A stretch of 64,000 bases of DNA. It comes from Octopus vulgaris (lineage: Eukaryota). The translations under genes and the position numbers were made by a program. Shown in pieces: positions 15,927 to 51,990 of this stretch; positions within the stretch are counted from its first letter, which is position 1, and the number at the start of each line of letters is the position of its first letter. Below the pieces are notes generated by a model, which ran no database searches, had not been told where the DNA came from, and saw only the letters and a list, made by a program, of their open reading frames with translations. The stretch lies in contig OX597827.1 in NCBI GenBank assembly GCA_951406725.2, positions 49,414,001 through 49,478,000 of the forward strand, read 5' to 3'.

Positions 15927-16020
15927 ATACCATATAAAATATATATATATATATATGTATGTATGTATATACCATATAAAATATATATATATGTATATAC
16001 CATATAAATATATATATATA

Positions 16021-18041
16021 TCGCACTGCTTGAATCCAAAAAATATAACCTCCAACAATGCATGAAGACCCTCATCAATAACCAAAGATCAGCTGAGGAG
16101 AAGTGGGCCATTGAAAAAATCAAACTCAACCCCAAAGTGTTCTTTTCATTTGCGAGGAAACGCAGGGTCACTGTCTCCACTGTAGGCCCTCTAATTGACG
16201 AAACTGGCACTCTCCAAGATAATGCCAAATCCATGGCCGAGATACTGCAGAAACAATACTGCTCTGTTTTCAGCAATCCTGATATGGCCGATCTGGGCTG
16301 TATCAGTGATGTCAACCCCCAACACACTATATCGGACATAACGTTTAGTGCCCCTGATGTCTTAGCGGCGATAAACGAAATAAAACACAATTCAGCAGTA
16401 GGCCCCGATAGGTTCCCTGCTTGTGTCCTGAAGGTGTGTCGACACCAACTTGCATCTCCCCTTGCTAATCTGTGGAGAAACTCACTGGATGCTGGCTATA
16501 TTCCAAAAAACCTTCTGTCCCAGTCTGTTGTCCCAGTTTTCAAAAAGGGAAACAAGTCCCTTGCAGTGAATTACCGTCCGATCTCACTCACCTCTCATAT
16601 CATCAAGGTATTTGAGAGGGTGGTGAGATCTCAAATAACCCAATTTCTGGAAAGCAACAGACGGCTGATCTCCAACCAACATGGGTTCCGTAATGGAAGG
16701 GACTGCCTAACGCAGCTCCTGCACCACTTTGAGGACATTTTGAGAGCTTTGGGAGAGGGCTCCAACACCGATGTCATCTACCTTGATTTCAGTAAGGCCT
16801 TCGACAGGGTCGATCACAAGATCCTATTGAAAAAACTATCCAACATTGGTGTCTCTGGAAAGTTACTGAAATGGATTAAGTGTTTCCTGACAGACAGATC
16901 TCAACATGTTGTAGTTGAAGGGGTAAAATCAAGCCCAGCCAAAGTCAGTAGTGGCGTTCCGCAAGGCACTGTGCTGGGCCCACTTCTTTTCATCATTTAC
17001 ATTAATGACATTAATGACATTAATGACATCATCAAGCACAGCAACATAAAAATCTTTGCAGATGACTCCAAGCTACAGAAGGTCATAAATGAGGCGAGTG
17101 ACCGGACATGCCTTCAGTCAGATCTACTGGCTGTTATCCAATGGGCAGAAAAAAACAATATGCTGCTGAACGAGGATAAATTTGAGCTAATCCACTTTGG
17201 AAAAGAGGATGCCCTGAAACTCCCATACTCCCTTCCTTCAGGTGAAACTCTCACGGCGTCCAACAACATCAGAGACTTGGGAGTAATTGTGGACAACAAC
17301 GTAAGCTGGGCCACTCATATAAACACCAAAGTTGACATGGCCCGCAGAATGTGTTCCTGGATTCTCAGAACTTTCCAGTCGAGAGATATCCACACCATTA
17401 TCCTTCTCTTCTCCACTTTTGCCCGACCCCACCTTGAATACTGTTGTCCACTGTGGTCTCCCCACACAATACAAGGTATCATAAAAGTCGAAGCACCTCA
17501 AAGGGCAATCACAAAAAAGATAGATGGCATGACAGGCCTCGACTATTGGGGTCGACTAGAAAAGCTAAAACTCTATTCTCTCCAACGTCGTCGTGAGCGC
17601 TACATCATCTGCATGATGTGGAAAATATTCCATCAGCATTGCCCAAATGATGTTGGCATCACCTTTAAGGTACATCCAAGGCTTGGGCCCCGTGCCATCC
17701 GCCCAAAACAAAAATCGCACTCTCATCTCATAACAACAAAAACAACAATACGGCACAATTATTTCACCTCAATTGGCCCCGCTCTCTTTAACATTACACC
17801 AAAACACATTAAAACAGAAACTGACCCTATAGGGTTCAAGAAGTCTTTGGACAGATTCCTTCAAGAAATCCCGGATAAACCCCCTACACCCGGATATGTC
17901 TCTGTAAACAATAACTCTCTACTTGAGTGGGCCATAGTGCCCAAATTCTGACTTGAAAGACTTCACCAGGTGGTGCTATTAAGTTAGACATGGCCTGGGC
18001 CAATAATGGCCGAAACCTATCAAAGTATCAAAGTATCAAAG
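16021..18041 (+). mobile_element. 5'-truncated CR1-group non-LTR retrotransposon inserted into a minisatellite
   Basis: Frame open from the left junction; short 3' UTR with GGCCA-ATAA-TGGCC hairpin; terminal (TATCAAAG)x3 at 18018-18041; TA runs on both sides. Confidence 0.92.
16062..17951 (+). CDS. LINE ORF2 reverse transcriptase (endonuclease domain lost by 5' truncation)
   Basis: 629 aa without stops; motifs [56 protein letters not shown]. Confidence 0.95.
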
Positions 18042-21211: not shown

Positions 21212-21864
21212 GTAATGGTTTCAAACTTTGGAACTGTCCCAGGAGTTTTTGAAGGGAGAGGAAAGTCTGAAATTTGGCGGAAGGGAATTAGACGATTATA
21301 TCGACTCCCAATGCTCAACTGGTATTATTTCATAGACCTCGAAAGTATGCAAGACAAAGTCGACCTCGGCGGTATTTGAACGCAAAGACAGCCGAAATAC
21401 CTATTTCTTAATTACACACAAGGGGCTAAACATAGAGGGGACAAACAAGGACAGACATAGGTATTAAGTCGATTACATCGACCCCAGTGCGTAACTGGTA
21501 CTTAATTTATCGACCCCGAAAAGATGAAAGGCAAAGTCGACCTCGGCGGAATTTGAACTCACAACGTAATGCAGACGAAATACCTATTTCTTTACTACCC
21601 ACAAGGGGCTAAACATAGAGGGGACAAACATGGACAGACATAGGTATTAAGTCGATTATATCGACCCCAGTGCTTAACTGGTACTTAATTTATCGACCCC
21701 GAAAGGATGAAAGACAAAGTCGACCTCGGCTCGAATTTGAACTCACAACGTAACGGCAGACGAAATACCGCTAAGCATTTCGCCCGACGTGCTAACGATT
21801 CTGCCAACTCGCCGCCTAAGCATTTTGTCAGGCGTGCTAACGTTTCTATTAGCTAGCTGCCTTA
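21212..21864 (-). mobile_element. SINE family B nested/tandem multimer
   Basis: An older copy interrupted by two 183-185-bp body+tail units (21401-21583, 21584-21768) and a head. Confidence 0.85.
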
Positions 21865-26885: not shown

Positions 26886-27651
26886 TACTCCAGTTCTTGT
26901 AGTGATGATGGTGGAGGATATCGACTCCTTACTTGTTTTTCTAAAATACACCATAAATGTTCAATAATAATGGAGATCTGGGCATTGTGGTGGCCAGATA
27001 TGATGTTCAGCTTCACTAGAATGTTCCTTGTGCCATTCAGTAACAACTTTAGCTGTGTGAAGTGGTGCATTATTATCCTGAAAGATTGCGTTTTCCTCCG
27101 GAACCAGTTCCGCAAACATAGGATGAATTTGATCAGATAAAATACTTAAATATTCCTGACTTTTAATTCTGCCATGAAGGTAAACCATTGGGCCGGCGGA
27201 TTTCCAAGATATAGTTCCCCATCTACCCCAGATCATCACAGACCCTCCGCCATGTTTAACAGTTGGAAGACGTCAGTCAGGGTAAAATGCTTCTTTTGGA
27301 TGTCCCCACATGTATACTCGGCCAGTGGTCGGAAATAAGGTAAGGGATGACTTGTCCGAGAAAATAACATTCTTCCACTGCTCTAGGGACCAATTCTGTA
27401 GGTTTTTAACTCCACTCTAAACGCTTCGCAACATTTGCTTTCGAAAGCACCAATAATTTGACCGCTTTGAAAGTCCAATAGATCTGTCATTTTAATTAAT
27501 TTTAATTACTTTTTTCTAATGATATAGAAAAAAAAACAATTAAGCAAAACTAATAATAAATCAAAGAACAAAAATAAACAAGCCTTAGACAGTTTTATAG
27601 ATATTTGAAAATTATGATGCTGTATGTTTCCATTATTTTGTCCAATCGCTG
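26886..27651 (-). mobile_element. Decayed Tc1-like DNA transposon
   Basis: VIFSDKS, TVKHGGGSVMIWG, FQDNNAPLH, WPPQCPDL, IEHLW; TIR-like end CAGCGATTGGACAAAATAATGGAAAC next to TA at 27652. Confidence 0.85.
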
Positions 27652-28925: not shown

Positions 28926-28989
28926 AAAAAATTAAAAGAATTGTTATTAATAGGCACGGGAGTGGCTGTGTGGTAAGTAGCTTGCTAAC

Positions 28990-30468
28990 GAGCATGCGTC
29001 GAGTTGTTTACTGTGTCAAGTTTTGACTAGGCGGACAGAATCCTTTGAGCTGCTCGCCAGCGGTTTGTTGCCGAGTGGAAAATAATGTATTCGGACCTTA
29101 GCGAGTACGAGCTGTCCACATCTGAGGAGGAGCTCGTTAAGGCCGTGAACAGGATGGACCAACATTTGGAGAAAATGAAGAGTTTTGCTGACGCGGCGGG
29201 AGTGAAGAGAAAGGAAGTGGACCTGACTGAACTGAAGGAGCTGTATAAGATGACACAGAAGGTGGGAAGTGACGTAAAGTTACTACCCCCGAAAACGGTC
29301 ATGGTGAATATGGAAAGGAAAACCATCACCTACAAGGTGCACTCAGTGGAGAGTAGGAGAGTGGAGCAGATGAATATGGAAAAAATAGAAAAAGCTCTCA
29401 AGGGGCTTTCGAACGAAGTAACATACATAGCAAACGGAAGCGGATATGGGACGGTGGTTGTCCAGTTTAAAACAGAGGAGGAGGCGAGGAGGCTGGCAAG
29501 TGCAACCGTAAAAGCTGAGGAACTGGTGCTTCTACCCTCTTATCTTGGAAGAAAAAATTCTAAGGTGAGGGTAGAAAGAATTCCACCTGACATAAAGGTG
29601 GCTTGGGTTGCGGCAGCCGTCCTCGTTGGAAGTGAGGAGGTGACTGTCCTCCAAGCCACAGAGACAGAGGAAAGAAGTTACAAAGGAAAATTACTGGAAA
29701 TGACCATACAAGCGGAGGCGAAGGAGCTGGAAAATTTGGCGGAAACGGTGTCAGTGGGAGAAATGGTACTGAGAGTATGGGTAGAAGGCAGAACCCCGCG
29801 GTGCTTTAAATGTGGCCAAAAAGGCCACATTAGAGCACACTGCCCCCTACAGAAGAAAAAGAGGAAAAAATAGATGAACCAGTTGCGGAGACAAAGAAGA
29901 AAAAAGAGGACGAAGACAAAGACGGACGAAAGGAGGTTGAATGGATAGTAGCAGAGAGCAGAAGTAAGAAGAGGAAGAAAAGAAAGAACACTGAGTGTGA
30001 AATGGTACCCCAGTCCAACTCCATCCCACCCAAGACCACTCAGACCCACCCGCCCCATACAGACACCAGACCCACCCACTCCCTTTCCCCACAAGAAAAA
30101 AAGAAAAAGAAAAAAGAGCAGACACCACAGAATTCAGAAGACCCCTCCCCCGGTGAAAAAGGTTGCGAAAGAAAGTTGTCTTTAAGTGATAGCGAGAATG
30201 GAAAAAAGAAGGACTAGACCAGAGATTAGAGAAGAATTCAGACTCAAAGGCAGCGAGTGGTGTTGCTCAGAGTGGGGTGAGTAGCACACTCGTCATATTT
30301 CATACTTCATTTTCAGATATCATGCATGTTATCATAAACTTAATTTATTTTCTCACGTTCATTTTCATGTCACTCACAGTATCATTTTATTTTTAATTGT
30401 TATATGTCTCCACATGTTTTTGTAGTGTCCCCTCTATGTAATGCCTTTATGGCAAAATAGTTGAAATA
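28990..30468 (+). mobile_element. Complete ORF1-only non-autonomous retroelement (Tx1/L1-type gag knuckle) inserted into a SINE
   Basis: Exact 15-bp TSD AAGTAGCTTGCTAAC at 28975-28989 and 30469-30483, splitting a SINE head. About 95-bp leader, ORF1, U-rich 3' UTR, terminal stem-loop and AATAAA; no RT sequence. Confidence 0.9.
29085..30217 (+). CDS. ORF1/gag-like protein with CCHC zinc knuckle; one frameshift near 29845
   Basis: ORF 29085-29873 contains a possible RRM-like segment (GYGTVVVQFKTEEEARRL) and VEGRTPRCFKCGQKGHIRAHCP. An acidic/basic then Pro-rich tail continues in another frame to TAG at 30217, colinear with the 36-kb homologue, implying a 1-bp loss in the CCCCC run. Confidence 0.8.
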
Positions 30469-30638
30469 AAGTAGCTTGCTAACCAACCACATGGTTCCGG
30501 GTTCAGTCCCACTGCGTGGCATCTTGGGCAAGTGTCTTCTGCTATAGCCTCGGGCCGACCAAAGCCTTGTGAGTGGATTTGGTAGACGGAAACTGAAAGA
30601 AGCCTCGTCGTATATATGTATATATATATATGTATATA

Positions 30639-33760: not shown

Positions 33761-35120
33761 ATAGTACAGTACACCCCTCAGTCGGTTTTAGTTTGCCGTG
33801 GTGTTTGTGTACTTGCACATTGAGATTAGTAGAGAATGAAAATGTTTTTCTAGGGGAGCGCGTGAAAATGATTAACACAGAATTTTTATTTACTGCACTT
33901 GGTATTTCCTGCGTCGGTATTTTGATGTAAAATAACAACGACAATTATACGCAGGGGAAGAGATGTGATGTATATAAATTCTAACAAAGAAATTGATGTT
34001 TATGGAAGTAGCCAAAAACATTTTTAAATTAAGAAACTACTTGTAACCACCAGCCAGTTTAGCATCGATAATGGTATCTATTTCATATACATCAAGAGTT
34101 TAAGAGTAAAGGTTCTCCAGTTTATGCGGAAAACAGCCATTCAATTCTGCTAAAAGCCCAACTACAAATTAGATATTTGTAGGAAATCTTATTAACTAAT
34201 TTTGCTCTGATTAACAGATTATACAAATGTCGACAATGGACAATAACGAAAAAAAAAAAGCAATATCTGCAAACGATATTTAAAGAAATATTACTTTTTT
34301 TTTCCTTCGGCAAAATAGAAATTTTATGATTATTCCAAAAGGATAATTCAGCCGCCTTTTTTCTTGGGGTCGAGAGACGGTATAGGTTTTAAAAGATCTG
34401 AAAATGACAGGCTTACAAAAGGAGAATAGTTTTTTTGTTTCCATATTATTTTGTTCTGTTACGTTCCATTAGTTTCATTTTTTTATCAGATATATTACTG
34501 TTCTTCATTCGAACGGGTCGTGGCAGGAGAACAGAATAGACGGACGGCCAGTCCGATTGGTTTCGATTTCAAGTAGCTAGCGATTGAAGAGCCACAAGAA
34601 AATAAAAATTATATCAAAATTTTAGTAATAAAAACACGAGGAAACTGACGTGAAGGAAACCAATTGATTAAAAGCAAGACAGAAAATGTCATTAAAAAGC
34701 ATAAAATAATAAATTTCAAGTTGTAAAAAAACAAAAAGAAAAATTCTGCATTCATTACTGTTGAAAATGTTTACAATAAATTTCAAAAGAAATATTTCCC
34801 AGTAAAAAGATTATGATATTTAAATATGTGATTGAGTGGGTGACATTCTTCTCAGACAATAGAGTTTAAAATAAAACAAAATGCGTTAACTACCCTTCAG
34901 ACATCTCTTCCGTCGACTGTGAAAGGCTAACATCTGCAAACAGACACTTTTTATTTTTTTAATGTTAACATTCCGACTAAGTTCCGTTGACTTAGCAGCA
35001 GCAACAAATCTCAATGCGTCACACGTTCAGATTTCTTTATTTTAGCACACGTATACATATAAAATGCAGAAAGCTTAGGATGAGTTCAAATTGTTTGTAT
35101 GCTGTGTGTGTGAATGAGAG

Positions 35121-35838
35121 TATTTCTTTATTACCCACTAGGGGCGACATAGAGGGGACACTACAAGACATTGGGGACATAGAACATTATAAAAATAAAA
35201 GTATGTAAGATGAAATTTTGAAAATGATAATATGAAAGTGATGCTAACGGTCCCATTCCGCTAGCACCACTTACCTGTCCTTCATAACCTATCATCCACT
35301 GTCATCTCCAATCAGAAGCCCTATATTCACTATCATTCTCTCAGTTCTCTCTTCATACTCCTTCACTACCACATCCATAAATCTCACCTTAGTCACCTTC
35401 ACACCCTCATTTAAAAACAACTCTCCATAATTGCATCCATCAGTCCCTTTGGCACTACTGCATAACTCCCATCTACTCTCTCATACCATGAATAATTATT
35501 TATAATGTCTTTCAAATTTTCAGTGTCCTCCTTTTTCACGAAACATAGAATATGGGGCTTGGGATCTTGTTTACTCTCTTGTGTGTCTGTGTTATTTTTT
35601 TGTTTTCTTGTAGGCGGGGAGTGGGTGGAATAACTGTTTGCAGGGGGAGGATGGGACTCAGAGGGTGCGGGTGGGTTGGGGTTCAATATAGTTCAATTTT
35701 CTTCTTTTTCTTTTCTTTCTTGCATCTTCCCATTTGGTCTGGGCTTCCTCCTCCTCAGTCTCTTCCTCAACTTGTTTCTGCTCCACCTCCTCCTTTTCCT
35801 GGTTCACAGTTTCCTTTTGTGGGGGAGGGCAGTAAGCG
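35121..35838 (-). mobile_element. 5'-truncated copy B of the ORF1-only family, directly downstream of copy A
   Basis: Starts at AYCPPPQKE, has YSWY..YAV domain with frameshifts; tail tgtcccctctatgtcgcccctagtgggtaataaagaaata. A+B together are flanked by a 16/17 TSD (35104-35120 and 36633-36649). Confidence 0.85.
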
Positions 35839-35839
35839 A

Positions 35840-36632
35840 TTTCTTTATTACCCACTAAGGGGCTACGAAGAATGGCGGACATAACAAAACATGGGGACAT
35901 AGAACATTATAATTAAACTTTATGAAAATGAATTGTTAAACGAAAAAAAATGATAAAATGAAAGCGATACCAACGGCCCCGTCCGTCAGCATCACTTACC
36001 TGTCCTTTGTTTTTCATAGTCACTTGAATGTTCTTTGCCAATACGAATAAATTCCATATCCATTCTTACTCCGAAATACTCATTCATATTTTCCACGAAT
36101 TCATCGCTCATTCTTATATCTTTCACCTCCCAATTCTCCCTTTCACACCTCTCCATAAACTCACCTATGTTCTTCTTTTCAATCACAGCATACCTAGTCT
36201 CTCCAACATCATACCATTTATACTCTTCCATTAGACTTTTAACTTCCCTCTGTTCAGTCATAGTACAAATGTACGGCCTGGGTTCGATTTCAATCTCTTG
36301 TGTGAGTGTATTCTTTTTTTTCTTTTTGTTTTCTTGTTGGGGGGGAGCGGGTGGGTTCAATGTCTGCATGGATAGGGTGGGACTCAGAGGGTGTGGGTGG
36401 TTTTGGGGTAGATTGGAGTTCCATATTATTTTCTTTTCCACGTATTCTTCTCTTCCTCTTACTTCCAGCTTCCTTCCATTTCTGTGTATTCTCTTCCTCT
36501 GTTTCCTTCTCCTCTGGTTTCTGCTTCTCTCTCTCTGGTTCGGAATCCATTTCTTTCCCTGGGGGAGGGCAGTAAGCTCTTATGTGGCCCCTCAGGCCAC
36601 ACTTATAGCATCTTGGTGCTCTGCCCTCCACC
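35840..36632 (-). mobile_element. 5'-truncated copy A of the ORF1-only family
   Basis: Encodes VEGRAPRCYKCGLRGHIRAYCPPP, a charged/Pro-rich linker and a YKWY..YAV domain; ends ...gccccttagtgggtaataaagaaa. Confidence 0.85.
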
Positions 36633-37639
36633 GTGCGTGTGAATGAGAGAGTAATTTCTATAATCAGTGTTTCTTTGCACGTGCTTGGCTGCAAATTTTG
36701 AAACCACAACAATTAAATGGATGAAATAATTGGACCATTCTATTTCATCAAAAAATGTTTTTAATCATAAAACACTCTGAATGAGGTAAGAGAGTTGGTT
36801 GCAGTTTCATTCCCAGATAGGTGAGCATTTAATCAGTCTTATTATTTTAATATCTTAACGCGGCGAGCTGGCAGGACCGTTAGCATGCCGAGCGAAATGC
36901 TTAGAAGTATTTCGTCTGCCACTACGTTCTGAGTTCAAATTCCGCCGAGTGCCCTTAATGCTCAAATTCGTTTCATGTGTTTATCGACCCCTTCGAGTCA
37001 ATAATAACCACTTTACCAGCCCTTGTCCCTGACAGACTGTCTAAATTAAAAGAAGAAACCACAGGATGCTCATGCCTTTAACGGCTTTGATCTGCATGAT
37101 GCGGGAGTGAGAAACAACTACAGCTACAATAGTATCGAACCCAAGAAGAGCACCTCTGGGAAGTTGTTCATGTAGTTAAACATAACCGAATTTCCTTAAA
37201 GTAAACGACCTTTCGGCTTCAAACAAAAGAAAAACACGTTGGAAAAATCTACATAAAAGAAACGAAAAAATACGAAGCGTTCAGATCGGTTACGTCTTTC
37301 ATCATAATTCATCATAACAATACTAAGGACTAAACAACAACAGCTAAACTTTAAGCTTAGGGCATCTATCGGTTAAAGTCGGGCAAGGTTAACAATGAAT
37401 CTGCACCAATATGCGTGGTTTAGCGGTTAGGGTATTTAGCCCAAGATATTAAGGTAGTGCTGTCCTTGAGCAAGACACTTCATTTCACATTACTCCAGTC
37501 CACTCAGCTGGCAAAAATGAGTTGTATCTATAATTGAAAGGGGCCAGCCCTGTCGCCTTCTGTGCCACGCTGAATCTCCCTCAGAGCTACATTAAGGGCA
37601 TGCGTGTCTGTGGTGTGCTCAGCCACTTGCAAGTTAGTT

Positions 37640-42329: not shown

Positions 42330-42661
42330 CTTGGCAGAAACGTTGGCACGCCGGGCGAAATGTTTAGCGATATTTCGTCTGCCTTTGCGTTCTGAGTTCA
42401 AATTCCGCCGAGGTCGACTTTGCCTTTCACCCTTTAAAATAAGGCGGCGAGCTGGCACGCCGGACGAAATGCTTAGCTGTATCTCGTCTGTCGTTACGTT
42501 CTGAGTTCAAATTCCGCCGAGGTCGATTTTGCCTTTCATCCTCTCGGGGTCGATTAAATAAGTACCAGTTTCGCACTGGGGTCGATATAATCGAATTAAT
42601 CCGTTTGTCTGTCCTTGTTTGTCCCCTCTATGTTTAGCCCCTTGTGGGTAGTAAAGAAATA
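42330..42661 (+). mobile_element. SINE family B, partial head plus full copy
   Basis: GGCGGCGAGCTGGCA head, GCCTTTCATCCT.TCGGGGTCGAT core, tail GCCCCTTGTGGGTAGTAAAGAAATA. Confidence 0.85.
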
Positions 42662-50307: not shown

Positions 50308-51262
50308 CAGGGTGCTCAGGCTAAAGGTGATGATCTCTTATTTCTCCTTTTTCTGGGAACAGCTTGCTGCATTGGTGGACAATTAACAGCGTTGGAGAGC
50401 ATAAAGGTTAAAGTTAGGTGATATGGCGGACTGGAAGCCATTTGAATATTGGGAAAGAGTTACCAGTATCGAGGTGATGTTGAAATGCTGACATCATGGC
50501 TGCTACTCAATTCTCTGTGAACATCGTAAAGGCTGTATGATGTGGCATTTAAGACGGCTACAAAGGAGACTATGAAGCTGTGACCAGCTGGAATGGATAG
50601 TGCAGGCGTTTTAACTGCGTCCACACACCAGAATTCATCCAAGAACTGCAGGACAAGGGAATGGAAAATCCGAGCAACGAAATCTCGGCTTTGGCAAGAT
50701 GGGTGCTGGAGTCACTACCATGAAGCTGGCTCTGAATGCAGACTTTCACTACCACTTGTACAAGAGGTGCAAGGGAAAAATTCTGACAGCCAAGGCCAAG
50801 AAGAACCACTTGACAAATGCAAGGAAACTCCTGAACAATCTAAGGCATCCTGTTGAGCCTATCTGGTTCTTCTCAGATGAAAAGAACTTCTGTCTGTACC
50901 AGTTGCACAACACCCAGAACAACAGGTGGCTTTCCTACAATATATGCAATGGCTCATCTATCATGAAAACCAAGTTCCCCCAAACTGTGATGGTCTTTGG
51001 GTGTGTCTCCAGGGAGGGTGACATCATGCTGACCCACATCTTTGAACAAGTCCTTAGGCTCAGTTCAGATGGCTATGTGAAGCTACTGAAAACTATGGTC
51101 AAAATCTGGCTGGAGAAGGTTGCTGCTGAAAGGCCATATGCATGGCAGCAGGATTTGGCTCCTTGCCATACCTCCAGAAAGAGTCAGAAGTGGTTATCAG
51201 AGAATCACTATGACTTCACCAGCCCAAATTTCTGGCTTCCTAATTCCCCTGATCATAATCCT
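50308..51262 (+). mobile_element. Decayed DD37D/maT-type Tc1-mariner transposon, 3'-truncated (FAM184A intron)
   Basis: TA|CAGGGTG start; FFSDEKNF, NTQNNRW, VMVFGCVS, WQQDLAPCH, PNSPDHNP motifs. Confidence 0.8.
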
Positions 51263-51990
51263 TTTTCCCATGAAGCTCCCTTCTCTGTTGTGGTTGAGCT
51301 TTTTCCCTTTTATCAAGCCATTGTTTACAATGTTTAACATTTCGATAGAAGATCCATTTTACGTCTATCCGAAGAGGGTGAAATGAGTTTGCGAGAATGG
51401 AAAGAAGAGCAGATGTCAACTCAGGATTTGCGGTTGCTTTCGGACAATTCATCTGGCACCCATTTACTAAGTTTAGGAACCTTTCCAAGTTGTTGAAGAT
51501 GACAATGAACAGTTGTATGGTTTGAACTAAGCTTTATTGCCAATTCTTCAACGGATAATGCAGGATTTTCTTCAAGTAATGCCTCAAGGAGCTTATCATC
51601 AAACTCAACTGGACATCTTGTTTGATCTTCATCTTCAAGGCTGAAATCTCCACTTCTTAATTTTGCAAACCATCTTCTGCAAGTTCTTTCATTGAAGCAT
51701 TCTTTCCCATAAACTGAGTGTATGTTTCGAGTTGCTTCGGCAGCAGAGTTTCCTTTTTTTATAATCATAAAGCATTATGTGCCTCAAATGCTCTTTGGAT
51801 ACTTCCATGTTAGAAAGGGTTTTAATCAAAAAAATTTTAATTCTATTATTCTGTAAAATAATAATTAGTTTAAATGTACACAAATGCATAAAAATAATTT
51901 TTAATTCCATTAGACATTCTCTAAAATACTATTAAATTTCATTCAATTTTAAAAAAGGTAAAATCGGACAGAACTTATAGGATGACCTCA
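51263..51990 (-). mobile_element. Decayed mariner (DD34D) 5' half
   Basis: MEVSKEHLRHIMLYDY, frameshift, then ATRNI..VYG..RRWF..RSGDFSLED, KWVPDEL and KWIFYRN; TIR-like end adjoining TA at 51991. Confidence 0.88.

Follow-up and report, generated by a model that had tools for sequence, protein, structure and literature searches.

What is a retroelement that carries an ORF1 and a 3′ end but nothing between them: a LINE that has lost its ORF2, or a member of a family built that way? The question is raised by an insert in a 64,000-nucleotide stretch of Octopus vulgaris DNA (contig OX597827.1, positions 49,414,001 to 49,478,000; hereafter the window). The original prediction read it as a non-autonomous, HAL1-like element. 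We consider it very probable that the insert belongs to an ORF1-only family that inhabits one fixed site in a SINE and is copied by a partner of the L1/Tx1 type, with which it shares its 3′ end.

The insert (1,479 bp), its exact 15-bp target duplication, the 95-nt leader and the CCHC knuckle were seen as predicted at 28975-30483 (Table 1). The insert is one copy of what we call family A, and its ORF1 starts with an ATG at 29085. Pfam recognized a zf-CCHC domain (E 3e-4) in the window ORF1, and an RRM_3 domain below the cut-off (E 1e-3).

Table 1 Features of the family A insert and of its sister elements in the window.
Feature	Position	Strand	Basis or remark
Host SINE head, left part, with A-box-like motif (presumed from the box consensus)	28953..28974	+	Sequence; same flank at most family A copies
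5′ copy of the 15-bp target duplication	28975..28989	+	Identical to 30469-30483
Family A element, 1,479 bp (non-LTR retrotransposon with ORF1 only)	28990..30468	+	Comparison of genomic copies
5′ leader, 95 nt	28990..29084	+	
ORF1 as read in the window copy, 262 aa, stops just past the knuckle	29085..29873	+	
RRM-like domain pair in tandem, predicted (residues 69-156 and 157-236 of the model)	29289..29792	+	AF2 model of L037
CCHC zinc knuckle	29802..29843	+	C, C, H, C invariant in 19 aligned ORF1s
Out-of-frame ORF1 tail, acidic/basic and Pro/Thr-rich	29862..30284	+	4-nt loss near 29861; extra A in 30202-30207
3′ UTR, 184 nt	30285..30468	+	
3′-terminal 43 nt common to autonomous element X (84%)	30426..30468	+	DNA comparison
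AATAAA completed across the element/target junction	30465..30470	+	Sequence
3′ copy of the target duplication	30469..30483	+	
Remainder of host SINE, then (TA)n; B-box-like motif 30500-30509	30484..30610	+	Sequence; empty copies
Family D copy, 5′-truncated, sister ORF1-only, joined directly to the E copy	35121..35838	-	
Family E copy, 5′-truncated, sister ORF1-only	35839..36632	-	Full length ~1.73 kb; other 3′ end and target

The ORF1 of the window copy is broken. A frameshift in a C run had been proposed as the cause; we rejected it, the C run being identical in close copies. Relative to older copies, the window copy is without 4 nt just past the knuckle (~29861), a loss common to L001, L002, L003 and L006. 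Because L002, L003 and L006 have it too, and the contigs of runs X3 and X17 read across it without a gap, the loss is inherited, and an assembly error was likewise rejected. The second lesion, an extra A in 30202-30207, is private to the window copy and absent from the contigs of X1, X3 and X17. Four copies form a subfamily with a 262-aa ORF1; in a sister subfamily of the 4-nt-loss copies (L004, L005 and L007), a 28-nt duplication after the knuckle restores the frame of the tail. Intact natural copies have ORF1s of 400 aa (L008, older) and 408 aa (L004), with the stop at the position of 30284. The family ORF1 thus has ~400 codons instead of the ~377 first proposed, and the 3′ UTR 184 nt instead of ~250 bp.

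The expected ending in a stem-loop and AATAAA held only in part. A TGCC-N5-GGCA inverted repeat is present at 30442-30454, within the last 43 nt, but the stem-loop was not significant by energy (z -0.84), and the last two A’s of AATAAA are the first two bases of the target. Family A has no poly(A) tail at its 3′ end; the ends adjoin the SINE target directly.

Searching the octopus genome with family A gave 530 candidates, of which the best 40 were scored and 30 loci fetched, in line with the prediction of a family. The fetched loci were 75–100% identical, most being ~1.45–1.5 kb long; 23 of the 30 spanned nearly the whole element or had a separate 3′-end match. With the ORF2 of neighbouring autonomous elements as tblastn query, no match was obtained in any of the 30 ORF1-anchored loci. 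All 30 3′-anchored loci likewise gave no tblastn match in the interval from ORF1 to the 3′ end; this set overlaps the first, and its query included the last 23 ORF1 codons, favouring ORF1-joined matches. Two of the 3′-anchored loci had an ORF2 only past the 3′ end, belonging to another element, and one partial 3′ match was a 163-bp truncated insert. Thus, as predicted, no fetched copy had an ORF2 match between ORF1 and the 3′ end, within searches that scored the best candidates only and could miss a closer ORF2-bearing parent of family A. Contigs of two runs that we guessed to be RNA covered 26 of the 30 bins, which shows neither transcription nor strand.

For selection on ORF1 we used 37 family A copies and counted as shared any single-base codon change found in three or more of them. 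Shared changes in the core (codons 1-257) were 143 synonymous and 93 nonsynonymous (pN/pS 0.19), compared with 87 and 242 among the private, singleton changes (pN/pS 0.80; Fisher p 3.5e-16). Selection on the tail was weak (pN/pS 0.49 vs 0.80, p 0.09). Pairwise dN/dS, the check suggested at the outset, was 0.21–0.43 across family A ORF1s. These ratios argue that the ORF1 core is under purifying selection and that ORF1 is functional in the lineage. The same data speak to the idea that ORF1 is a passenger, the element spreading like a long SINE with an ORF1 signal inherited from autonomous ancestors. In four young copies ORF1 does reach no further than 262 aa, broken copies are numerous, and the tail is weakly constrained. 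Yet changes common to ORF2-less copies are strongly biased toward synonymous ones in the RRM-knuckle core, truncation just past the knuckle spares that core, and the sister subfamily regained its frame via the 28-nt duplication; we regard a passenger ORF1 as extremely improbable.

A single-sequence fold of ORF1 was uninformative (pLDDT 37.6), and an alignment-based model was used. The AF2 model of a natural copy (L037) with 19 aligned relatives had a mean pLDDT of 81.9 and placed two RRM-like domains ahead of the knuckle. The top Foldseek matches were tandem-RRM proteins, and the La RRM matched the model with Z 9.4 and rmsd 2.6 (80 aligned). ORF1s combining RRM and CCHC are type I in the L1 ORF1 typing of PMC5203782, and with its two predicted RRMs and CCHC knuckle the modelled family A ORF1 is of this type. 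Related proteins were found in Octopus sinensis and O. bimaculoides, annotated as uncharacterised.

Joined together, the two flanks of the insert make up one short repeat, with (TA)n at its end. We take this host repeat to be a SINE from its anatomy and from A- and B-box-like motifs in its head, recognised by eye against the box consensus; ARAGORN and Rfam gave no tRNA match for it. Family A lies between the two motifs. Empty copies of the site occur elsewhere in the window (25974, 42104 and 59383), and the genome has 69,390 exact empty target sites. Tandem copies of another, apparently SINE-like repeat are found at 21293-21769 and 42344-42542 of the window (183-bp and 109-bp periods). A 3′-end pattern independent of the target had 1,083 genomic matches, 895 of them followed by an exact AAGWAG (controls, 0). 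Of the first 30 element ends, 27 differed from the 15-mer at no more than 4 positions, and another two, with small rearrangements, fell in that SINE as well. On inspection by eye, the SINE site held 29 of 30 family A 3′ ends. By these counts, family A insertion is site-specific, at one fixed site in the SINE head. The insertion separates the two box-like motifs, and the SINE copy that receives it would fall silent. Among younger A copies the AAGTAG...TAAC form of the target predominates, among older ones AAGAAG...TTCC, and the elements may track SINE subfamilies over time.

Family A shares this site with a guild of other elements: the ORF1-only families B (~2.0 kb), C (~2.25 kb) and H, and the autonomous families X, Y, V and Z. 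Guild elements stack head-to-tail with one target copy between units, the longest arrays having 8 units (contig C1) and 9 units (contig C10). ORF1-only elements made up 22 of the first 30 ends on contig C1, with 3 ORF2 and 5 unclassified; an overlapping sample of ends had ~18 ORF1-only, 5 ORF2 and 7 unclassified. Several families open with a GCGCATG(C/T)G motif, found at 28990-29000 in the window and at the 5′ ends of B and C. It resembles what we take to be an NRF1 site and is a possible internal promoter.

One locus at the same SINE site (L113) is an intact X of 5,440 bp, with an open ORF1 and an open 1,150-codon ORF2 frame. Family X has endonuclease, RT and zf-RVT domains; the endonuclease is of the APE type and the ORF2 of the L1 group, with human L1 ORF2p as its best PDB match (E ~1e-66). 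Set against the Tx1-like features compared in PMC5203782 and PMC4494074, X has both the RRM/CCHC ORF1 and the target preference. The 16 homologues returned included no named Tx1 reference. X likely belongs to the Tx1 clade. The only significant DNA similarity between the window element and X is in the last 43 nt (84%, E 2e-6), a stretch that is likely the ORF2 recognition signal; the two ORF1s are 35% identical. Sharing both target and 3′ end, X is likely the partner type that drives family A, among at least four autonomous families at the SINE site, any of which could be the driver. The window itself holds a 647-codon LINE ORF2 fragment with an RT (Pfam RVT_1) at 16008-17951 (+); as a candidate partner it was rejected, with 26% to the X ORF2. 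Frames at 26961-27272, 50615-51337 and 51421-51774 read as Tc1/mariner transposase fragments, going by motifs that we take to be diagnostic.

The missing ORF2, the purifying selection and the intact partner support the prediction of a non-autonomous cephalopod family with a functional ORF1 of its own, and ORF2 is likely borrowed in trans from the partner. The 15-bp repeat that had been ascribed to target-primed reverse transcription proved real; the SINE target, the arrays of several families and the partner had been missed.

Two further elements in the window (35121-36632), at first taken for subfamilies of the same family, are copies of sister families D and E, whose 3′ end and target differ from those of family A. 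A 17-bp repeat with 1 mismatch (36633-36649 and 35104-35120) stands on either side of the pair. Across 35104-36649 (-), D and E are joined in a (CA)-rich site with no target between them and one shared flanking repeat, and the junction looks like the product of a template switch. Family E is young: among 747 candidates, the best 40 copies were 96–100% identical. D and E are part of a second guild that includes ORF1-only families F and G and an intact autonomous family, W (5.26 kb). The site where E stacks with F, G and W, seen 3′ of E/W arrays at L150, L152, L153 and L156, has a translation resembling that of a decayed Tx1-type ORF1, and a D copy was found nested in an H-type ORF1 (L038/L111). 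Placing D in the SINE guild was rejected after a check of its 3′ end.

The ORF1 tree comprised 13 rows, four of them autonomous ORF1s, with near-duplicate and partial rows left out. Family A grouped with D/E/F of the other target guild (97/98). In AU tests, with groups defined after a first tree, an A+X clade (p-AU 0.0008) and an A+X+V+Y clade (p-AU 0.0011) were rejected, and a single origin was not rejected, either for all ORF1-only rows (p 0.26) or for the ORF1-only rows of the SINE guild (p 0.12). The next-closest family, related to the O. bimaculoides protein P0003, was without ORF2 in four of four core-matched loci, and a fifth, tail-matched locus had no ORF2 either. The target of this P0003-like family (L237-L240) is a third one, a repeat whose GC-rich terminal hairpin presumably resembles Helitron-type ends; Rfam gave no match for it. 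That the ORF1 of family A groups with ORF1-only families of other targets suggests an old RT-less lineage in which tails and partners are exchanged. The tree suggests, as the simplest reading, that an old ORF1-only lineage has changed its tail, partner and target.

Family A could instead be a recent internal-deletion derivative of an unsampled autonomous LINE. Homology links its ORF1 to those of autonomous elements (35% to X), and genome searches that score the best candidates may pass over the parent. Against such an origin stand the uniform structure of copies 72–100% identical, the restriction of significant DNA similarity with intact X to the last 43 nt, the rejection of both the A+X and the A+X+V+Y clade, and the nearest relatives (D, E, F and P0003-like), which are ORF1-only as well. 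A deletion derivative seems to us very improbable.

The distribution of ORF1s over targets also bears on what selects the site. HeT-A Gag and the ORF1 of Dictyostelium TRE5 choose targets, and in family A, too, ORF1 rather than the partner endonuclease might do so: ORF1 is kept under selection, and the target lies in a head that resembles a Pol III promoter. But close ORF1s (A, D/E/F and P0003-like) use three targets, distant ones (A, B/C/H and X) share one, and it is the 3′ tail that tracks the target, making choice by ORF1 very improbable.

An extra T marks a variant of the 15-mer (+T) that was found at 46 SINE heads. At 36 of the 40 fetched, the 5′ end of an element followed (X, B, C and others) and 4 were empty, compared with an occupancy of ~1.6% at ordinary sites, two counts that differ in stringency. 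At 3′ junctions +T was found only 21 times, mostly inside few arrays. Young A copies had 2–3 mismatches between their own two target copies. The transcripts thus probably include target sequence from upstream, on which part of the 5′ junction is templated; alternatively, the +T variant would stem from slips that recur during joining.

The arrays themselves might come mainly from tandem duplication of DNA or from co-transposition of read-through multimers, which would be compatible with the rest of the model. Near-identical B arrays may be partly DNA-level duplications: B units are ~99% identical in one array, similar unit orders, A-B-X for one, are met on more than one contig, and +T is repeated through whole arrays. 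Many unrelated families of differing age are mixed in the arrays, however, each precisely bounded by one target copy, and we hold duplication as their main source to be rather unlikely.

In the mechanism that we propose, family A RNA would be coated by its own ORF1 through the two predicted RRMs and the knuckle. The partner ORF2 would bind the 3′ motif, nick the SINE site and prime reverse transcription there. At its 5′ end, and perhaps at its 3′ end as well, where AATAAA spans the junction, the transcript would overhang the target, so that part of the duplication would be copied from RNA. Every insertion would regenerate the target, letting further elements stack, and the host SINE copy would lose its promoter spacing. 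The ORF1-only lineage would be older than the present partnership, having changed tails, partners and targets. We lean slightly toward the broadest form of this reading, an old, self-renewing RT-less octopus lineage that swaps tails among site-specific Tx1-type drivers, outnumbers them several-fold and builds non-telomeric, HeT-A/TART-like arrays with duplications that are in part RNA-written, one guild in the promoter of the dominant SINE of the genome and the other in the ORF1 of fellow elements.

HAL1 has a poly(A) tail and dispersed, L1-type integration; family A has a fixed target, arrays and no poly(A) tail, and lives in a mollusc. The proposed likeness to HAL1, an ORF1-only, non-autonomous element of the L1 group (PMC5786205), is good as an analogy, family A also encoding ORF1 only and no ORF2, but does not extend to site specificity, to the 3′ end or to the protein. 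The family A ORF1 is type I with RRM and CCHC, not the Transposase_22 of type II (types per PMC5203782), and Pfam found only zf-CCHC and weak RRM_3 in the family ORF1s, with no Transposase_22. HeT-A resembles the octopus system in having ORF1-only families in head-to-tail arrays with autonomous partners; in Drosophila telomere arrays, ORF1-only lineages repeatedly spawn ORF1-only families (PMC13534243). Unlike HeT-A, the octopus elements are interstitial, dispersed on many contigs inside SINE copies and flanked by target duplications, their partner ORF2 is L1-like, and no host role is evident. HeT-A itself is of Jockey-clade origin. We know of no site-specific arrays of Ag-Sponge. This Anopheles element of another clade, CR1, is, like HeT-A and HAL1, an ORF1-present non-autonomous LINE (PMC5786205). 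Family A fits the ORF1-present category of Kojima 2018, with one ORF1 protein and a LINE-like 3′ end. As to the single autonomous counterpart of that scheme, to which 5′ and 3′ parts alike should trace, the 3′ 43 nt match X, ORF1 identity is 35%, and the A+X clade is rejected with four autonomous ORF1s sampled. By analogy, family A would work like HAL1 and HeT-A, but it is neither.

Tx1 elements target transposons, U2 and microsatellites, and their tandem insertions sandwich one target duplication (PMC4494074). Tx1L in Tx1D, Keno (U2), Kibi/Koshi and Tx1-Mar with SINEU likewise target another repeat, and non-autonomous followers share the target (PMC4494074); in the octopus, by contrast, the repeat targeted is a SINE head, and the driver is outnumbered by its followers, ORF1-only families that code for protein. 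The passages compared of PMC4494074 contain no SINE target or ORF1-only Tx1. A 2026 paper on O. vulgaris repeats (PMC13282606) describes 13 recently active L1-Tx1 families, and its compared passages make no mention of an ORF1-only, SINE-targeted structure. With further literature compared in passages (PMC8869645, PMC4758252, PMC8967140 and PMC10294476), no ORF1-only or SINE-targeting Tx1 was found in octopus; Repbase, Dfam, the Zenodo library of PMC13282606 and supplements may list the families. ORF1-only LINEs as a kind are thus already known. Their combination here (L1/Tx1, type I ORF1, SINE head, non-telomeric arrays and a cross-target lineage) was not in the passages of the literature searched.

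Few lineages are known to have ORF1-only LINEs (HAL1, HeT-A and Ag-Sponge), and so far it is with Drosophila telomeres that their repeated proliferation has been associated, a setting confounded by a host role. The octopus case presents the same pattern at a dispersed, apparently dispensable target. The SINE head is added to the known Tx1-type targets, and the +T variant provides a naturally occurring marker of 5′ junctions templated by RNA. In annotations, the family ORF1s are already listed as uncharacterised Octopus proteins. With this system one can test whether stacking at a specific site is in itself what gives rise to ORF1-only cheats, why these keep their ORF1, and whether the tail or the ORF1 sets partner and target.
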